From: an uncultured Alphaproteobacteria bacterium
GTDB lineage: Bacteria > Pseudomonadota > Alphaproteobacteria > HIMB59 > GCA-002718135
DNA: 64,000 bases
NCBI GenBank assembly: GCA_902621165.1
Contig: CACNKX010000001.1
Location: 213,071 to 277,070, forward strand
Reading direction: 5' to 3'
A program made the translations under genes and the position numbers. Of this stretch, positions 14,136-21,147 are shown in pieces. Within the stretch, counting starts at the first letter, position 1; every line of letters begins with the position of its first letter. The notes under the pieces were generated by a model. It was not told the origin of the DNA, did no database searches, and was given only the letters and a program-made list of their open reading frames with translations.

Positions 14136-14163
14136 TTGACATGATAAAAAAAATATTTATGTT
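14136..14163 (+). promoter_or_regulatory. Candidate sigma70-type promoter for nrdA (TTGACA-16 nt-TATGTT)
   Basis: TTGACA at 14136-14141 and TATGTT at 14158-14163, about 110 nt upstream of the nrdA ATG. This is sequence pattern only. Confidence 0.3.
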
Positions 14164-14273: not shown

Positions 14274-17027
14274 ATGGCAGACAATCTACAGGTATCAGCA
14301 AAAATCTCAGAAGAAAAAAGTGTAAATATTTTAACATTAAGTGTTGTTCGTCGTGACGGAGCTATTACTCCTTTCAAATCTGATAAAATTTCAAATGCTA
14401 TAAAAAAAGCATTCTTGGCTCAAACAAAAATTAGAAATGATAAAAATAAGGAAAAAGAACAACAAGATGGAATTCATAAAACTGTTGAAGCTTTAACTCA
14501 TAAAGTTGTCTCTGCTCTAACAAGAAGGATTGCCGACGGCGACATGATTCACATTGAGGATATACAAGATCAAGTGGAGTTAGCACTTATGAGAGATGAG
14601 CATCATAAAGTTGCTAGAGCGTATGTTTTATATAGAGAACAAAGAGCGGCTTCAAGATATCACACTAAAAAACTAAAAGAACAAGTTGGAGAAAAAGCTT
14701 CTTCAATGATGGTAACCAAAAGAGATGGAAGTAAAGAGCCAATTTCACTGGATAAAATAACCAATAGAGTCTCTGTGCTATCAACTGGTTTAAATATTGA
14801 TCCAATTGTCGTTGTTCAAAAAGCTGTTCCAGGCTTATATTCTGATATTAGTTCCATTGAAATTGATACTTATCTTGCTGAAACTGCAGCCGCTTTAACA
14901 GTTGAACATCCAGATTATTCTTATCTTGCAGCAAGAATAAAAGTTAATTCACTACATAAAGAAACCCCAGGTTTCATAATTGCAACAAAAAATTTATACG
15001 ATGATGGATTGTTAAGAGAAGATTATTATAAAAAGGTGATGGAGAATGCAGATTTAATAGAGTCCGTAATTGACTATGATAAAGATTATACTTTTGATTA
15101 TTTTGCTCTCACAACACTAATAAGGGCATATTTATTAAAGTTCGATAATAAAACAATTGAAAGACCTCAAGACCTTTGGATGAGAGTGACTTTAACAGTT
15201 ACCGGTAATGAGTTTAATTTAGATAAAATAAAAGAAACCTATAAAAGTTTATCAACTGGTATGTATACACATGCTACTCCAACATTGTTTAATAGTGGAT
15301 TAAAAATGCAGCAATTATCTTCATGCTTTTTGATAGGTATGGAGGATGACTCCATAGAAGGTATTTTTAATACTATAAAAGATTGTGCTCTAATATCTAA
15401 AACCGCTGGTGGTATTGGCATGCACGCTCACAATATTAGAGGTAGTGGAAGTAGAATAAAATCAACAAACGGCAAATCTAATGGCCTTATTCCATTTTTG
15501 AAAATATTTAATGAGACTGCTAAATCAGTTGATCAAGGTGGAGGAAAAAGAAAAGGTTCTTTCGCAGTTTACTTAGAACCTTGGCATGCTGACATTGAGA
15601 AATTTCTAGAACTTAGAAAAAATACAGGTGCCGAAGAATTTAGAGCGAGAGATTTGTTTTATGCTTTATGGATACCTGATTTATTCATGAAAAGAGTAGA
15701 AAATGATGAAGAATGGACACTTATGAGTGAACATGAATGTCCAGGTCTTTCAGATGTATATGGTGACGAGTTTGAAAAACTTTACACTAAGTATGAAAAT
15801 GAAATGAAGCATTTAGAAAAAATTAAAGCAAGAGATCTAATGTCAAAAATTATAGAAGCGCAGATAGAAACAGGACAGCCTTATATGCTCTATAAGGACT
15901 CAATCAATAACAAGTCCAACCAAAAAAATATTGGTGTTATTAAATCTTCAAACCTGTGTGCAGAAATAGTTGAATACTCTGATAAGAATGAAACATCTGT
16001 ATGTAACTTGGCTTCTATAGCTCTGCCAAAATTTGTAAAAAAATCAGATAAAAAATTAATATATGACTATGATGCTCTTTATGAAACAGCAAAATTGGCC
16101 ACAAAAAACTTAGATGAAGTAATTGATATTAATTTTTATCCAACTGATAAAACGGAAAGATCTAATAATAAACACAGACCAATAGGTTTAGGAATACAGG
16201 GTCTTGCAGATGTCTACTTCAAGTTAGGAATAGCTTATGAGTCTGAAGAGGCTAAAGAAATAAATAAATTAATTTTTGAAACAATTTACTTTGGAGCTTT
16301 AGAAGCTTCATGTGAATTAGCAAAAGAAAAGGGAGCATACGAAACATTTAAAAAATCACCAATTTCGGAAGGTAAATTTCAATTTGATCTGTGGAATGTT
16401 AACCCGTCTTCAAAATGGGATTGGGATTCGCTAAGAGCTAAAATTAAAGAGCACGGTGTAAGAAACTCTTTAACCACAGCTTGTATGCCAACTGCGTCAA
16501 CAGGCATTATATTAGGTAACACTGAAACATTCCAAATACAAACCTCTAATATATATAAAAGACAAACACTCTCAGGTGAGTTCCTTCTTGTAAATAGATA
16601 TTTGGTGAATGAACTTTCTCAAAGAGGACTGTGGAATAAAGATATGAGAGACAAAATAATTTTAGAAAATGGATCGGTAGAAAACATAAATGAAATTCCA
16701 GTTGAGCTAAAAGAAATCTATAAAACAGTTTGGGAAGTATCACAAAAAACTGTCATAGATATGTCAGCAGATAGAGCACCATTTATTGATCAAACCCAAT
16801 CAATGAATCTTTGGCTTTCAACGCCTACATTTGGGAAAGTTAATTCAATGCATATGTATGCATGGAAAAAAGGTCTTAAAACAGGAATGTATTATCTCAG
16901 AAGTAGATCAGCAGTTGATGCTGTAAAAGTTACAGTTTCATCAGAAAAAGCAGCAAAAGATGCTTATATAAATACTGCTATTAAACAAAACAATGAACCA
17001 GAAGATTGCGAAACTTGCAGTGCATAA
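14274..17027 (+). CDS. nrdA: Class Ia ribonucleotide reductase alpha subunit, eukaryote-like, with two N-terminal ATP-cones
   Basis: 917 aa. Long blocks are near-identical to my recollection of mammalian R1 (SSCFL..M.DDSIEGI, GGIG, LEPWH.DI..FL.L.KNTG.EE.RARDLF.ALWIPDLFMKRVE, NLC.EIVEY, GLKTGMYYLR). The C-terminal redox tail is CETCSA. There are two VxKRDG/VRRDG ATP-cone starts. Confidence 0.97.
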   Translation: MADNLQVSAKISEEKSVNILTLSVVRRDGAITPFKSDKISNAIKKAFLAQTKIRNDKNKEKEQQDGIHKTVEALTHKVVSALTRRIADGDMIHIEDIQDQVELALMRDEHHKVARAYVLYREQRAASRYHTKKLKEQVGEKASSMMVTKRDGSKEPISLDKITNRVSVLSTGLNIDPIVVVQKAVPGLYSDISSIEIDTYLAETAAALTVEHPDYSYLAARIKVNSLHKETPGFIIATKNLYDDGLLREDYYKKVMENADLIESVIDYDKDYTFDYFALTTLIRAYLLKFDNKTIERPQDLWMRVTLTVTGNEFNLDKIKETYKSLSTGMYTHATPTLFNSGLKMQQLSSCFLIGMEDDSIEGIFNTIKDCALISKTAGGIGMHAHNIRGSGSRIKSTNGKSNGLIPFLKIFNETAKSVDQGGGKRKGSFAVYLEPWHADIEKFLELRKNTGAEEFRARDLFYALWIPDLFMKRVENDEEWTLMSEHECPGLSDVYGDEFEKLYTKYENEMKHLEKIKARDLMSKIIEAQIETGQPYMLYKDSINNKSNQKNIGVIKSSNLCAEIVEYSDKNETSVCNLASIALPKFVKKSDKKLIYDYDALYETAKLATKNLDEVIDINFYPTDKTERSNNKHRPIGLGIQGLADVYFKLGIAYESEEAKEINKLIFETIYFGALEASCELAKEKGAYETFKKSPISEGKFQFDLWNVNPSSKWDWDSLRAKIKEHGVRNSLTTACMPTASTGIILGNTETFQIQTSNIYKRQTLSGEFLLVNRYLVNELSQRGLWNKDMRDKIILENGSVENINEIPVELKEIYKTVWEVSQKTVIDMSADRAPFIDQTQSMNLWLSTPTFGKVNSMHMYAWKKGLKTGMYYLRSRSAVDAVKVTVSSEKAAKDAYINTAIKQNNEPEDCETCSA

Positions 17028-17041
17028 AGAAGGAGTAAAGA

Positions 17042-18031
17042 ATGATATCAAAAGGCGTTAAATCAATATTTCCAATAAAAAACCAAGAAATTTGGGATAG
17101 GTACAAACAACATATTCAAGCCTTTTGGACAACTGAAGAAGTATCTTTGCAAGATGATTTAAGAGATCTTGAAACTTTAAATGATGGTGAAAAGCATTTT
17201 ATTAAGCACGTACTTGCATATTTTGCTAACTCCGAAGCAATGATTAATGAAAACTTAGCAAGTAGGTTCTACAAAGAAATTTTAATTCCTGAAGCAAGAT
17301 GTTTTATATCTATACAAATGTTGAATGAATCAATTCATGCAGAGATGTATGGTCTACAAATTGAAGCTTATGTAAAAGATGCAAAAGAAAAAGACATGCT
17401 TTTTGATGCAATACAAAACGTGCCGTGTATTAACCATAAAGCACAATGGGTATCAAAATGGCTCAATGGTAGTCAAAATTTATTAACAAGACTAATAGGA
17501 TTTGGATTAGTTGAAGGTTTATTTTTTGCTGGCTCTTTCTGTGCAATATATTATTTCAGAAAAAGAGGTTTATTACCTGGTTTAGCATTATCTAACGACT
17601 GGATTGCAAGAGACGAAGGAATGCATTTTAGTTTCTCATCTCTTATGTTTAGAACTTTAAGAGATAAATTTAATAATAAAACATTAACTGATGCAGATAT
17701 TAGTGATTTGTCTTTGATACCCTCAGATGTGCCTCAATCACAATTTGAAGAAATTGTTAGAGAAGCAGTAGCATTTGAAAAAGAATTTGTAAGAGATGCT
17801 TTACCAGTAGATTTAATTGGTATGAATCAAGACTTAATGTGTCAATATATTGAAGCTGTTGCAGACAGAATTGCTGACCTATTTGAATTTGACAGAGTCT
17901 TTAAAACAGAAAATCCTTTTGATTTTATGAGAGCTTTAGATGTACAAAATGTTACTAACTTTTTTGAAAAAAGGGTATCTGAATATCAACGACCTACAGA
18001 TAGAGCTTTAAGTTTTGATGAAGCATTTTGA
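17042..18031 (+). CDS. nrdB: Class I ribonucleotide reductase beta subunit, eukaryote-like
   Basis: 329 aa with FWTTEEV, HVLAYFANSEAMINENL, NESIHAEMY, VEGLFFAGSF, RDEGMH and the ENPFDFM...NFFEKRVSEYQ motif. Confidence 0.97.
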   Translation: MISKGVKSIFPIKNQEIWDRYKQHIQAFWTTEEVSLQDDLRDLETLNDGEKHFIKHVLAYFANSEAMINENLASRFYKEILIPEARCFISIQMLNESIHAEMYGLQIEAYVKDAKEKDMLFDAIQNVPCINHKAQWVSKWLNGSQNLLTRLIGFGLVEGLFFAGSFCAIYYFRKRGLLPGLALSNDWIARDEGMHFSFSSLMFRTLRDKFNNKTLTDADISDLSLIPSDVPQSQFEEIVREAVAFEKEFVRDALPVDLIGMNQDLMCQYIEAVADRIADLFEFDRVFKTENPFDFMRALDVQNVTNFFEKRVSEYQRPTDRALSFDEAF

Positions 18032-18270
18032 TGGAAGCAGAGATATACTCTAAAACTAATTGTGGATACTGTGATAGAGCTAAACTACGGTTAGCTAAAT
18101 TTAATCCAAAGATTTATATGCTTGATACAGATTATACGAGAGAAGATTTTTTTGAAAAGTTTCCGAACGCTAAAACCTTTCCTCAAATAATTTTAAATGG
18201 TGAAAAAATTGGAGGGTATCATGAACTTGAAAAATGGTTTGAAATGAATACCTTTGACGAAGAATTCTAA
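18031..18270 (+). CDS. Glutaredoxin (CGYC active site), RNR-operon associated
   Basis: 79 aa from the ATG at 18031, which overlaps the nrdB TGA as TGATG; the ORF track extends to a TTG at 18028. It has the CGYC motif and TFPQIILNGEKIGGYHEL. Confidence 0.9.
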   Translation: MEAEIYSKTNCGYCDRAKLRLAKFNPKIYMLDTDYTREDFFEKFPNAKTFPQIILNGEKIGGYHELEKWFEMNTFDEEF

Positions 18271-18395
18271 ATAACCTTTTTTTTTCCTTTTCTTGAGTAA
18301 GTTTTTTTATTTCTAACAATTCTTTGTTTATATTTGGGTAGTTTTAAATCTTGAGCAAAGGGATTTCTTTTCTTAATTTTTTTTTTTATTTCCAT
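18267..18395 (-). CDS. Small basic protein (42 aa), candidate ArfA-like alternative ribosome-rescue factor
   Basis: Hand translation gives MEIKKKIKKRNPFAQDLKLPKYKQRIVRNKKTYSRKGKKKVI, ending at a TAG. The ATG lies 10 nt after the polA stop. The core P-x-Y-K-Q-R-I-x-R-N-K-K...T-Y-S-R-K-G-K resembles the E. coli ArfA core [23 protein letters not shown] (recalled from memory). It is below the ORF-track length cutoff. Confidence 0.5.
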   Translation of the reverse strand: MEIKKKIKKRNPFAQDLKLPKYKQRIVRNKKTYSRKGKKKVI

Positions 18396-18405
18396 AAAAT
18401 GTATT

Positions 18406-21147
18406 CTAATGTGCCTGTCCCCAATGATCACCAGCACCAAAATCAACAGTGAGTGGAACTGAAAAGTCTTTGTATTTTAAATGTACAGACTCCATAATCT
18501 TTTTTACATTACTTACTAAATTGTCATATTTTTTAGTTTCGACTTCAAAGATTAGTTCATCATGTACTTGTAAAAGCATTTCAGCCTCAATATTTTTAAG
18601 TTTTATTTCCTTATGAATTTCTATCATTGCTAACTTAATAATGTCTGCTGCACTACCTTGGATTGGTGCATTAATGGCTTGTCTTTCTGCAAAACCTCTA
18701 ACAGCAAAATTCTTATCGGCAATTCCCTTAATATTAATTTTCCTTTTAAAAATTGTTTCAACGTATTGATTTGTTTTTGCGAAATCAATTTGATGCTCCA
18801 TATATTTTTTAATTTTTGGGTATTTAATAAAATACTCATTTATGTAATCTTTTGCTTCAGTATTGGAAATGTCAAGTTGTTTAGCTAAACCGTATGGACT
18901 AATTCCATATAGAATACCAAAATTAATTGCTTTTGCTTTTCTTCTATAATCATTATTTATTTGACTATCGTTTAGATTAAATATCTCTTTAGCAGTTGAT
19001 GCATGAATATCTTCATTGTTTTTAAAAGCTTTAATAAAATTTTTATCACTAGAAATTTCTGCAGCTAATCTAAGCTCTATTTGAGAGTAATCAAAACTGA
19101 CCAATTTTTTTCCTTTTCCACTAACAAAAGCTGTTCTTATTTTTTTTCCATTTTCAGTTCTAATTGGGATATTTTGAAGATTTGGATCCGTAGAGCTTAA
19201 TCGACCTGTTAAAGTATTAGCTAAACCAAATGATGTATGAACTCTACTTTTACTATCTGTTAATCTAAATAAAGCATCTGTATAGGTTGATTTAAGTTTT
19301 GTTAATTCCCGCCAATCAAGAACGAGCTGAGCAATTTCAAATCCATCTAAGGCTAAATTATTTAAAGTTGAAGAATCAGTTGAATATGTTCCTGATTTTG
19401 TTTTTTTACCACCAGGTATTTTAAGATTAACGAATAATATCTCTCCTAATTGTTTAGGCGAGCCAATATTAAACTCTTCTTTTGAAAGTTTATAAATATT
19501 CTTTTCAAGTTTTTTACTTTCATTCTCAAATTCATTACTAAGACTTGTTAAAAAATCTTTATTTACCTCAATACCATTTGCCTCGATTGAAGATAATACC
19601 TCTACAAGTGGTAAATCAATATTTTGATAAACAAAATTAGCTTTTTCTTTTATTAAGCGAGGATAAAGATGATGAAAAAGCCTGAATGTTAATAGAGAAT
19701 CTTCTGCAGCATAATTAATTGCTTTATCAATAGTTACTTTATCGAAAGTAATTTCATTTTTCCCTGTTCCAACAACTTCCTTATACTTAATTGTAGTATG
19801 ATTTAAGTGATTAAATGATAGATCATCTAAATTATGTTTAAAAATTCCATTATCAATTGAATAGGAAATTAACATTGTATCTGCAATTGAATTAAAAGTT
19901 ACTCCATACTTATTTAAAATTCTAATATCATATTTTATATTTTGCCCAATTTTTAAGATAGATTCATTTTCACATATTTTGTTAATATGATTAATCACAT
20001 ATTTTTCCTCTAACTGGTTATCAATTTTTTTAGAACCATCTAAACTGGTATGGTTTATAGGAATATAATAAGAAATATTTTCACTGCTACAAATTGATAT
20101 ACCAACTAATTTAGCTTTTTCTATATCGAGTGAATTAGTTTCAGTATCTATAGCGCAAATACCATTTTTTTTAATTTCACTTAAAACTTTTTCAAAATCA
20201 TTCTTTGAATTAATTAATTGATATTTTGGTTTTATTTCTTTTTTTGGAACTATATGATCATTATCACTAGATATAAAAGAATTAGATTTTAATCTTTCAG
20301 ATGTTGATCTAAAGCCCTGCTCTTTAAGAAAATTAAAGATATTATTATTTTCATTTTTTAATTCATTATAAGTTCTAATTCTATTAATGCTCTCAGGTAT
20401 TTGGACATCGTTTTTAAGTGTTACAAGTTTTAAACTTAATCTAATGTCATTTTCTGATTCTGCTAAAATATTTCTTCTTTTTTCTTGTTTAATTTTATCA
20501 AGATTTTTAATTAAACCATCAATATCATTAAATTCATTTATTAACTGAGAAGCTGTTTTTGGACCAATTCCAGGAGCGCCTGGAATATTATCTACTTTGT
20601 CGCCTGTTAAAGCTTGGATAAAAATAACTTTATTAGGTTTAACTCCAAATTTTTCTTCAACGTCTTTAATTTCTATTTTTTTATTTTTCATTGGATCAAG
20701 CATTGTCACTTTATTACTAACAAGTTGCATTAAATCTTTATCTGAGGAAACTATGATAGTCTCAATTTCATCTTTTTCAGCCAACTTAACATAGGTAGCA
20801 ATTAAATCATCAGCTTCAAATCCTTCTATTTCTAATTGAGGGATATTAAAGCTTTTTACGCATTCTCTAATTAATGGAAACTGTGGAACTAAATCGTCAG
20901 GAGCTTCTCCTCTATTAGCTTTGTATTCTGGGTAAATTTTATTTCTAAAATTTTCTCTTGCAGCATCAAAAATAACAATCATTTTATCATCACTATAATC
21001 TTCAATCAGTTTCACAAGCATGTTAGTAAATCCAAAAACTGCATTAATTGGGGTACCGTCAGCACGACTCATTGGAGGAAGACCGTAATAAGCTCTAAAA
21101 ATATACGCTGAGCCATCAACTAATATTAATCTACTCTTTTTATTCAT
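18406..21147 (-). CDS. polA: DNA polymerase I
   Basis: 913 aa with a 5'-3' exonuclease N-terminus, a 3'-5' exonuclease domain, and pol motifs DYSQIELR, RRKAKAINFG and QVHDEL. Confidence 0.97.
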   Translation of the reverse strand: MNKKSRLILVDGSAYIFRAYYGLPPMSRADGTPINAVFGFTNMLVKLIEDYSDDKMIVIFDAARENFRNKIYPEYKANRGEAPDDLVPQFPLIRECVKSFNIPQLEIEGFEADDLIATYVKLAEKDEIETIIVSSDKDLMQLVSNKVTMLDPMKNKKIEIKDVEEKFGVKPNKVIFIQALTGDKVDNIPGAPGIGPKTASQLINEFNDIDGLIKNLDKIKQEKRRNILAESENDIRLSLKLVTLKNDVQIPESINRIRTYNELKNENNNIFNFLKEQGFRSTSERLKSNSFISSDNDHIVPKKEIKPKYQLINSKNDFEKVLSEIKKNGICAIDTETNSLDIEKAKLVGISICSSENISYYIPINHTSLDGSKKIDNQLEEKYVINHINKICENESILKIGQNIKYDIRILNKYGVTFNSIADTMLISYSIDNGIFKHNLDDLSFNHLNHTTIKYKEVVGTGKNEITFDKVTIDKAINYAAEDSLLTFRLFHHLYPRLIKEKANFVYQNIDLPLVEVLSSIEANGIEVNKDFLTSLSNEFENESKKLEKNIYKLSKEEFNIGSPKQLGEILFVNLKIPGGKKTKSGTYSTDSSTLNNLALDGFEIAQLVLDWRELTKLKSTYTDALFRLTDSKSRVHTSFGLANTLTGRLSSTDPNLQNIPIRTENGKKIRTAFVSGKGKKLVSFDYSQIELRLAAEISSDKNFIKAFKNNEDIHASTAKEIFNLNDSQINNDYRRKAKAINFGILYGISPYGLAKQLDISNTEAKDYINEYFIKYPKIKKYMEHQIDFAKTNQYVETIFKRKINIKGIADKNFAVRGFAERQAINAPIQGSAADIIKLAMIEIHKEIKLKNIEAEMLLQVHDELIFEVETKKYDNLVSNVKKIMESVHLKYKDFSVPLTVDFGAGDHWGQAH

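Follow-up and report, generated by a model that had tools for sequence, protein, structure and literature searches.

A 64,000-nucleotide stretch of a SAR11 (Pelagibacteraceae) genome (contig CACNKX010000001.1, positions 213,071 to 277,070; hereafter, the window) contains nrdA, nrdB and grx in one operon on the + strand (Table 1). These genes encode the alpha and beta subunits of a class Ia ribonucleotide reductase (RNR) and a small glutaredoxin (Grx), and the analysis centers on the last residues of Grx, which resemble the C-terminal docking peptide of NrdB. Within the three-gene operon, no terminator-like site was seen on the + strand. The preliminary description of this DNA had reported a TGATG coupling of nrdB and grx, a CGYC site in Grx and the positions of the two tails, all of which were borne out by the sequence. 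At other SAR11 loci the nrdB/grx junction reads TAATG or TAAATG.

NrdA is approximately 60% identical to the human and yeast alpha subunits (R1) over the barrel region (E ~1e-174). Its N-terminus (14274-14700) includes two ATP-cone stretches (Pfam), which make it longer at this end than human and yeast R1, to which it is otherwise closely alike. At the C-terminus, the position of the CETCSA motif is occupied by C[EL]TC[ST]A in all SAR11 loci.

Table 1 Positions in the window of the RNR operon and of the elements discussed in the text.
Feature	Position	Strand	Basis
Promoter-like site TTGACA-16-TATGTT upstream of nrdA, probable operon promoter	14136-14163	+	Consensus match only, 10/12, best of the + strand
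nrdA, class Ia RNR alpha, eukaryote-like, 917 amino acids	14274-17027	+	Pfam Ribonuc_red_lgC and two ATP-cone stretches
NrdA segment with the residues matching yeast Rnr1 peptide subsite 2; proposed receptor of the Phe-carboxylate and acidic residues of both tails	16740-16859	+	Alignment
NrdA C-terminal CETCSA, CxxC shuttle cysteines for re-reduction by a redoxin	17007-17024	+	Sequence
nrdB, class Ia RNR beta, 329 amino acids	17042-18031 (coding to 18028, stop TGA 18029-18031)	+	Pfam Ribonuc_red_sm
NrdB C-terminal docking peptide LSFDEAF	18008-18028	+	Sequence; SFDEAF codons 18011-18028
TGATG stop/start overlap of nrdB and grx, translational coupling	18029-18033	+	grx ATG at 18031 shares its A with the nrdB stop
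grx, dithiol glutaredoxin, 79 amino acids	18031-18270 (stop TAA 18268-18270)	+	Pfam PF00462
CGYC redox-active site of Grx	18061-18072	+	Sequence; C11 and C14 invariant in the alignment
Grx C-terminal beta-tail-like peptide NTFDEEF	18247-18267	+	Sequence; past the last helix

Family and fold of the glutaredoxin

The Grx protein matched the Glutaredoxin profile PF00462 with 35.5 bits (gathering cut-off 22.9), and C11-G-Y-C14, T49-F-P51 (with the cis-proline) and the glutathione-site pair G61-G62 were invariant across 30 homologues. An identical sequence is recorded as 'glutaredoxin [Pelagibacteraceae bacterium]' on at least 1000 contigs. The AlphaFold2 model has the canonical glutaredoxin fold, with a predicted local distance difference test (pLDDT) score of 86.4, and the nearest folds in the PDB are those of E. 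coli Grx3 (3grx), Francisella Grx1 (3msz) and E. coli Grx1 (1ego), with template modeling (TM) scores of 0.7-0.77. The last helix of the model comprises residues 63-73 and residues 76-79 have pLDDT values below 50; the tail is predicted to be flexible and to lie outside the folded domain.

The matches to the equivalog models of GrxC (TIGR02181, 44.2 bits against a cut-off of 90) and GrxA (NF008401, 36 against 84; TIGR02183, 23.2 against 106.5) were all under the cut-offs. Grx is a genuine PF00462 dithiol glutaredoxin of a distinct subfamily, neither GrxA nor GrxC. An assignment to the NrdH-redoxins was rejected, given that CGYC is present, WSGFRP is absent and no NrdH model was among the NCBIfam matches. 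Likewise, nrdB and grx do not form a Grx::NrdB fusion, as the two open reading frames (ORFs) are separate and in different frames and the bifunctional model NF009398 scored 20.7 bits against a cut-off of 649.

The two tails in SAR11 and other bacteria

NrdB ends in ...RALSFDEAF and Grx in ...EMNTFDEEF. Among the 158 six-frame ORFs of at least 60 amino acids in the window, the C-terminal hexapeptide of Grx was the nearest to that of NrdB (BLOSUM62 score of 23; the runner-up scored 16 and is probably a spurious ORF), and these two proteins alone ended in [DE][DENAT]F. When related loci were included, 34 of 107 distinct Grx/NrdB tail pairs scored 12 or more (BLOSUM62, last six residues), versus 1 of 734 C-termini of other ORFs at the same loci. 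The codons of the two tails differ in the window (agt/acc, gat/gac, gca/gaa and ttt/ttc), and the earlier statement that the likeness is not a recent DNA duplication thus holds there.

A protein search with Grx returned 172 homologues, all SAR11-like and 65-99% identical, of which 109 cluster representatives with an intact end were used. The last residue (position -1) was Phe in 107 of these and position -7 was Asn, again in 107; position -3 was Glu in 92, and Asp, Asn or Glu occurred at position -2 in 105 and at position -4 in 98. In the alignment of 30 homologues, F79 was invariant and N73 at least 90% conserved. The terminal Phe was encoded by TTC in 26 and by TTT in 16 of the 42 distinct DNA versions of the tail, and its encoding by both codons indicates that the residue is held at the protein level, as had been claimed for the similarity. 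The shared motif [S/T]-F-D-E-x-F fared less evenly, being present in the window and typical only of the subclade to which it belongs; most SAR11 Grx end in L-A-F-N-x-P-D-E-[ND]-F, where Pro occupies position -5 and Phe position -8.

The NrdB tail is near-invariant, L-[SA]-F-D-[ED]-[ATS]-F, in 88 SAR11 loci, and a small amount of co-variation was detected. Genomes with NrdB LSF-DExF carry Grx N-[ST]-F-DExF, and in five distinct genomes with NrdB LAF-DExF (L077, L080, L258, L264 and L271) Grx ends in LAF-NxP-DExF, equivalent to the NrdB tail with three extra residues inserted. A scan of genome contigs with the Grx alignment gave 80 loci, 64 of them near-identical SAR11 Ia genomes, and thus showed little tail variation.

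A profile search over 1.84 billion representatives, followed by a genomic-context look-up, revealed three non-SAR11 bacterial operons that pair an NrdB ending in ...DF with a Grx ending in ...DF. Their NrdB proteins are 73-81% identical to that of the window and the contigs are up to 2.6-3.0 Mb long. The NrdB and Grx ends are VFSDEIDF and MCFDEDF in L161, SFNEDEDF and LHFDNDDF in L269, and MKFEEDF and FNTDFQDDF in L270. In L269 (2870-4490, on a 2.97-Mb bacterial contig), grx lies 1.6 kb downstream of nrdB, with an N6/N4 DNA methyltransferase gene and an unknown gene between them, and Grx retains its ...HFDNDDF end.

The two tails in marine phages

On marine viral contigs with an E. coli/T4-type RNR, NrdB ends in ...[FLM]-x-G-[FLMI]-[ST]-L, and the adjoining downstream Grx often has the same motif. 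The NrdB and Grx ends are, respectively, FAGMTL and LSGMSL in L168, LKGMSL and LEGMSL in L177, FDGMSL and LGGMTL in L176, MKGLSL and IKGLTL in L190, FSGLSL and LDGLSL in L207, QGLSL and TELSL in L163, and AGIKL and GDIQL in L222, and a large phage clade combines NrdB KGFSL with Grx NGTG[YHWF][TS]L. Matching tails were also retained when grx was not adjacent to nrdB, at distances of 429 nucleotides (nt) in L207 and 2489 nt in L214, as in the bacterial locus L269.

We profiled the tails in a viral sample that was seeded with NrdB and blind to the Grx tails. It comprised 80 loci, 65 of them with a Grx, and 50 of the 65 grx genes start between -10 and +50 nt from the nrdB stop. An end of the form G-PHI-[ST]-[LI] was detected in 18 of the 65 RNR-linked Grx versus 13 of 1509 other ORFs. 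Of 36 pairs, 22 had the same residue class at position -3 of both proteins (8.1 expected by permutation), and for non-aromatic Grx this held in 11 of 24 (2.2 expected). In the NrdB tree, one clade alternates between Met and Leu at -3 several times, and Grx follows except in L178. The check proposed in the preliminary description, on whether the Grx tail is conserved and co-varies with that of NrdB, was thus positive, through the conservation in SAR11 and the tracking of NrdB at position -3 in phages.

Several phage loci show other arrangements or ends. The viral contigs L081 and L082 (4950-5267) encode a SAR11-like Grx with 86% identity to that of the window, with ...KQENNNEGHTTRSG in place of the tail. 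Its gene follows that of a distantly related NrdB (ending in TWDDAF and of a different RNR type) at a distance of 626 nt and looks like a host-gene capture with loss of the tail. The Grx of L215, L231, L235, L241, L243 and L249 end in ...FF[QED][TSQ]L[KR]G, which resembles NrdB ...T[FL]KG-FSL minus its last three residues and is not explained by a docking model. In L196, L206, L208 and L211, NrdB has switched from ...GFSL to ...GMSL and the class-B Grx tails are degraded (GTGYTIGN, GTGESTG), possibly a decay once the mimic had ceased to match.

Genes for SegE-type GIY-YIG homing endonucleases were found in the phage RNR/grx loci L163 (1236-1589), L165 (877-1287) and L168 (5387-5797), shortly after grx in L163 and L168, and in L165 shortly after the gene for the RNR large subunit, about 3.7 kb upstream of grx. 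L163 also has a small zinc-ribbon ORF that overlaps the stop codon of grx. In L114 (1806-2884), a GIY-YIG homing-endonuclease ORF and an unknown 134-amino-acid ORF are inserted between nrdB and grx.

Viral scans with the single proteins P0221 and P0186 gave 6 loci, and a metagenome scan with the P0146 family gave 14, mostly with unrelated or tail-less Grx. The glutaredoxin P0259 (...NYGQGDF) is encoded after phoH, along with an RNR large-subunit gene ending in CAVCEA, and no NrdB was present in the retrieved locus, and P0263 (...FGLSL) comes from a 3-kb contig on which there are no RNR genes. Among cultured phages, no grx followed nrdB in the jumbo phage 121Q group, the closest NrdB relatives, and in the one cyanomyovirus examined, S-SCSM2R, Grx was not adjacent to the RNR genes. 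The NrdC homologues of cultured phages were below 60% identity to the class-B Grx P0180 and to P0186, with most alignments stopping short of the tail, and no tractable cultured phage with a tail-bearing Grx was found. The Grx tails were also compared with the NrdA tail (CETCSA; C-E-S-C-K-I in phages) as a possible model for the mimicry, and this candidate was rejected, as there was no similarity and the Cys at -3 was absent.

Proposed docking of the reductant and competing explanations

Yeast Rnr1 binds R2 (beta) peptides at two subsites, a broad, hydrophobic subsite 1 and a narrow, highly specific subsite 2 (PMC3483043). Subsite 2 is formed by S691, Q692, K693, I696, K723, S726, M727 and Y730 and holds the terminal carboxylate, Phe7 and Asp6; the acidic residues at -2 and -4 of the R2 peptide are the partners of K693 and K723, and the bound peptides are visible over their last 6-7 residues only (PMC3483043). 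Subsite 2 was mapped by an ungapped alignment to yeast Rnr1 residues 669-769. All eight residues of subsite 2 are identical in SAR11 NrdA (S823, Q824, K825, I828, K855, S858, M859 and Y862), as are three of the nine residues of subsite 1.

The Grx tail has a terminal Phe with a free carboxylate, Glu at -2 and Asp at -4, as in the eukaryote-type R2 docking peptide. Position -5 is Phe in the clade of the window, and position -7 is Asn, where R2 peptides have a hydrophobic anchor. At the level of sequence, the Grx tail has the tested features of a eukaryote-type R2 docking peptide apart from the hydrophobic anchors, with Asn at -7 and a -5 residue that differs among relatives. Its invariant part (the acidic residues and the Phe-carboxylate) corresponds to what R1 subsite 2 would read, and its variable part (-5 to -8) would face the diverged and less specific subsite 1. 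When the mutual information between the NrdA columns and NrdB position -3 was ranked, a column of the pocket helix (corresponding to about yeast F729) was second of 464, with a weak overall enrichment (Mann-Whitney p = 0.03), and we treat this as a hint only because the alignment is gapped there and phylogeny is uncorrected.

Given these patterns, we lean towards a reading in which Grx, the reductant, uses its tail to dock in the cleft of alpha that accepts the beta tail, as a non-covalent counterpart of the Grx::NrdB fusions. The tether to NrdA that the preliminary description had suggested, either for reduction of the shuttle cysteines or for competition with or regulation of beta, is supported by these patterns. 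The last 6-7 residues of Grx would be a flexible short linear motif that imitates the beta docking peptide and binds the same cleft of NrdA, which would keep CGYC near the mobile CETCSA cysteines of alpha. Each turnover leaves a disulfide, and its re-reduction could then be efficient even if the proteins are scarce. As the cleft also serves beta, Grx and beta probably take turns on alpha, or Grx may take the cleft of the protomer outside radical transfer. Both the physical binding to the cleft and the gain in reduction efficiency are what we infer. That the tails persist over deep divergence, far from nrdB, with synonymous turnover and in two chemistries argues for selection maintaining them once acquired.

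Little is established about how an external reductant reaches the mobile cysteines at the C-terminus of class I RNR alpha. NrdH (class Ib) and phage T4 NrdC are small hydrogen donors with a glutaredoxin fold that are encoded with or for an RNR; NrdH carries the motifs CVQC and WSGFRP and receives its electrons from thioredoxin reductase. To our knowledge, no beta-like tail has been described for either of them. In Grx::NrdB fusions (Facklamia ignava NrdB; Francisella spp. and vibriophages), the fused Grx is an efficient reductant of RNR (PMC6187632). As in these fusions, the SAR11 protein would be a dithiol Grx dedicated to a class I RNR and brought to alpha by an NrdB-type docking peptide. 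Unlike the fusions, in which Grx is joined to the N-terminus of NrdB and uses the tail of NrdB, SAR11 grx is a separate ORF with its own copy of the tail. Grx could thus dock without the help of beta, and would fill a cleft by itself instead of sharing one.

The Grx tail is like the R2/NrdB docking peptides and the inhibitors derived from them (Ac-FTLDADF, 'P7'; the yeast Rnr2 and Rnr4 peptides on Rnr1; PMC3483043) in its place at the extreme C-terminus, its Phe-carboxylate, the acidic residues at -2 and -4 and, in the clade of the window, a hydrophobic residue at -5. Its length is also that of the 6-7 residues which are needed of such peptides. It differs from them in being part of a redoxin and not of the radical-generating subunit, and in having Asn instead of Phe, Leu or Ile at -7. 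A second comparison is with the class Ib RNR of B. subtilis, in which cryo-electron microscopy revealed that TrxA docks on the alpha' side via a W623-F624-F625 patch (PMC11903788), the single mode of docking seen by this technique. Only some class I RNRs have this type of docking, and alphas of the eukaryote type 'likely use alternative mechanisms' (PMC11903788). Docking of Grx would likewise be a specific contact between redoxin and alpha that organizes the re-reduction half-cycle. TrxA uses a globular surface and an aromatic patch on alpha, and the beta clefts stay filled with beta, whereas the linear tail of Grx would use the beta cleft itself. What appears to be new here is the combination of a dedicated RNR redoxin with the beta docking motif. 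No earlier description of redoxins with beta-like tails was found in the full-text literature, although most subscription journals were beyond reach and this absence is no proof.

Several observations weigh against docking. In SAR11, position -5 is Pro and not Phe in 68 of the 109 Grx representatives and -7 is Asn and not hydrophobic, so that the mimicry at subsite 1 is loose. In B. subtilis RNR, beta tails fill both alpha clefts during turnover (PMC11903788), so that a Grx with such a tail would have to take turns or compete with beta. The phage co-variation statistics are uncorrected for phylogeny, with an estimated 4-6 independent co-switches and two or three exceptions. A matching end is found in only 18 of the 65 phage RNR-linked Grx, and many of the others are tail-less or end in ...TLKG, ...VDATK or ...LWHLYS. 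Some class-B tails run 1-3 residues past the Leu (GYTLS, GHSLG, GYSVGT and GESTG), which should spoil a fit that needs the terminal carboxylate. The tail codons of nrdB and grx are near-identical in L177 (GGAATGAGCTTA, 12 of 12 nt) and in L190 (AAAGGACTA[A/T]CCCTA, 14 of 15 nt), which could reflect codon bias and the constraint of the ATGA overlap, or short-patch copying between the 3' ends. Lastly, the unrelated 134-amino-acid ORF inserted in L114 ends in KYKKGFNL, like the NrdB tail LKGFSL, with different codons. It was considered as the marker of a wider family bearing beta tails and rejected, since the tail occurs in just 2 of its 13 relatives. This ORF probably captured the 3' end of nrdB, so beta-like tails can be acquired passively, and passive capture may be how the Grx tails arose.

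Occupation of the beta cleft by the Grx tail could also be chiefly regulatory, with Grx competing with beta as Ac-FTLDADF does and thereby damping or gating RNR, perhaps by redox state or the Grx:NrdB ratio. The mimicry and the co-variation fit such a role equally well, any cleft binder must displace beta given the filled alpha2 clefts of the B. subtilis enzyme, and C-terminal R2 heptapeptides are classic competitive inhibitors with half-maximal inhibitory concentrations (IC50) of 9-31 µM (PMC3483043). Nonetheless, we consider regulation as the main function unlikely. The CxxC, TFP and GG core of the glutaredoxin is intact and strongly conserved, and the natural Grx::NrdB fusions are activating reductants (PMC6187632). 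In so streamlined a genome it would be odd to find the inhibitor of an essential enzyme coupled to nrdB, and a monovalent tail of seven residues should compete poorly with bivalent beta2.

The tails might also be functionless by-products, left when the 3' end of nrdB was captured on insertion of grx or of a cassette, or homogenized by short-patch gene conversion. Homing-endonuclease genes adjoin grx in several phage loci, which suits such an origin, as do the end of the L114 ORF and the fully identical tail codons of L177. Pooled over the shared tail residues, codons were identical at 67 of 101 positions versus 45.8 expected, but this expectation ignores the codon bias of each genome and the constraint of the ATGA overlap on the last codon. 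It is quite improbable, in our judgment, that the tails have no function. The SAR11 tails vary at both synonymous and non-synonymous sites and yet keep the terminal Phe almost without exception, with either codon, while a neutral relic of six codons should have decayed over the 35% divergence of the Grx core. In addition, matching tails are retained with grx 0.4-2.5 kb from nrdB, the flanking homology that could seed conversion is absent, and the conserved positions are those read by R1 subsite 2.

The resemblance and co-variation of the ends do not by themselves identify their binder, and a third partner could read both tails, either a protease or adaptor for which they form a C-terminal degron and shared turnover signal, or a scaffold for deoxynucleotide triphosphate synthesis. 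Hydrophobic or aromatic C-terminal ends are typical of degrons. We rate such a partner as very improbable, as no further ORF in the window has an end of this kind and the acidic ...DExF and the ...G-x-S-L tails are each copied within their own RNR lineage, in bacteria and in phages of different hosts. A receptor that travels with the operon, i.e., NrdA, fits these two lineage-bound chemistries better than a host factor, and the known partner of the NrdB tail is the alpha cleft (PMC3483043, PMC11903788). That two short acidic/aromatic C-termini are alike by chance is barely credible even for a motif of just six residues in a compositionally biased genome, as the control distributions (2/158 window ORFs; 34/107 vs 1/734; 18/65 vs 13/1509) effectively refute it and a second tail class of different chemistry shows the pattern again.

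Docking of Grx through its tail would provide a concrete mechanism of RNR re-reduction in SAR11, a marine group of very wide distribution, and in many marine phages, and would link the Grx::NrdB fusions to a wider principle of recruitment. It implies that the reductant and the radical subunit compete or alternate at one site, which bears on the coordination of the RNR half-cycles. The tail would also be a clean natural case of short-linear-motif mimicry within one operon, and a sequence signature by which RNR-dedicated redoxins could be recognized in genomes and viromes. More tentatively, the C-terminal peptide of beta may be a portable 'address label' for alpha that is used by non-beta proteins in at least two class I RNR lineages, the eukaryote-like one of SAR11 and relatives and the E. 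coli-like one of marine phages, with time-sharing of the cleft so that catalysis, with the beta tail in place, and re-reduction, with the Grx tail in place, alternate in each protomer. If true, such a tail would be the missing mechanism of reductant docking for RNRs without the B. subtilis-type thioredoxin patch.

Downstream of the operon, a very basic ORF of 42 amino acids (MEIKKKIKKRNPFAQDLKLPKYKQRIVRNKKTYSRKGKKKVI) lies on the - strand at 18267-18395, just downstream of polA (18406-21147, - strand), and its stop overlaps that of grx. The ORF had no Pfam match and may loosely resemble ribosome-rescue peptides of the ArfA type. It was called as a gene at the matching place in the SAR11 contigs L258, L260 and L264.

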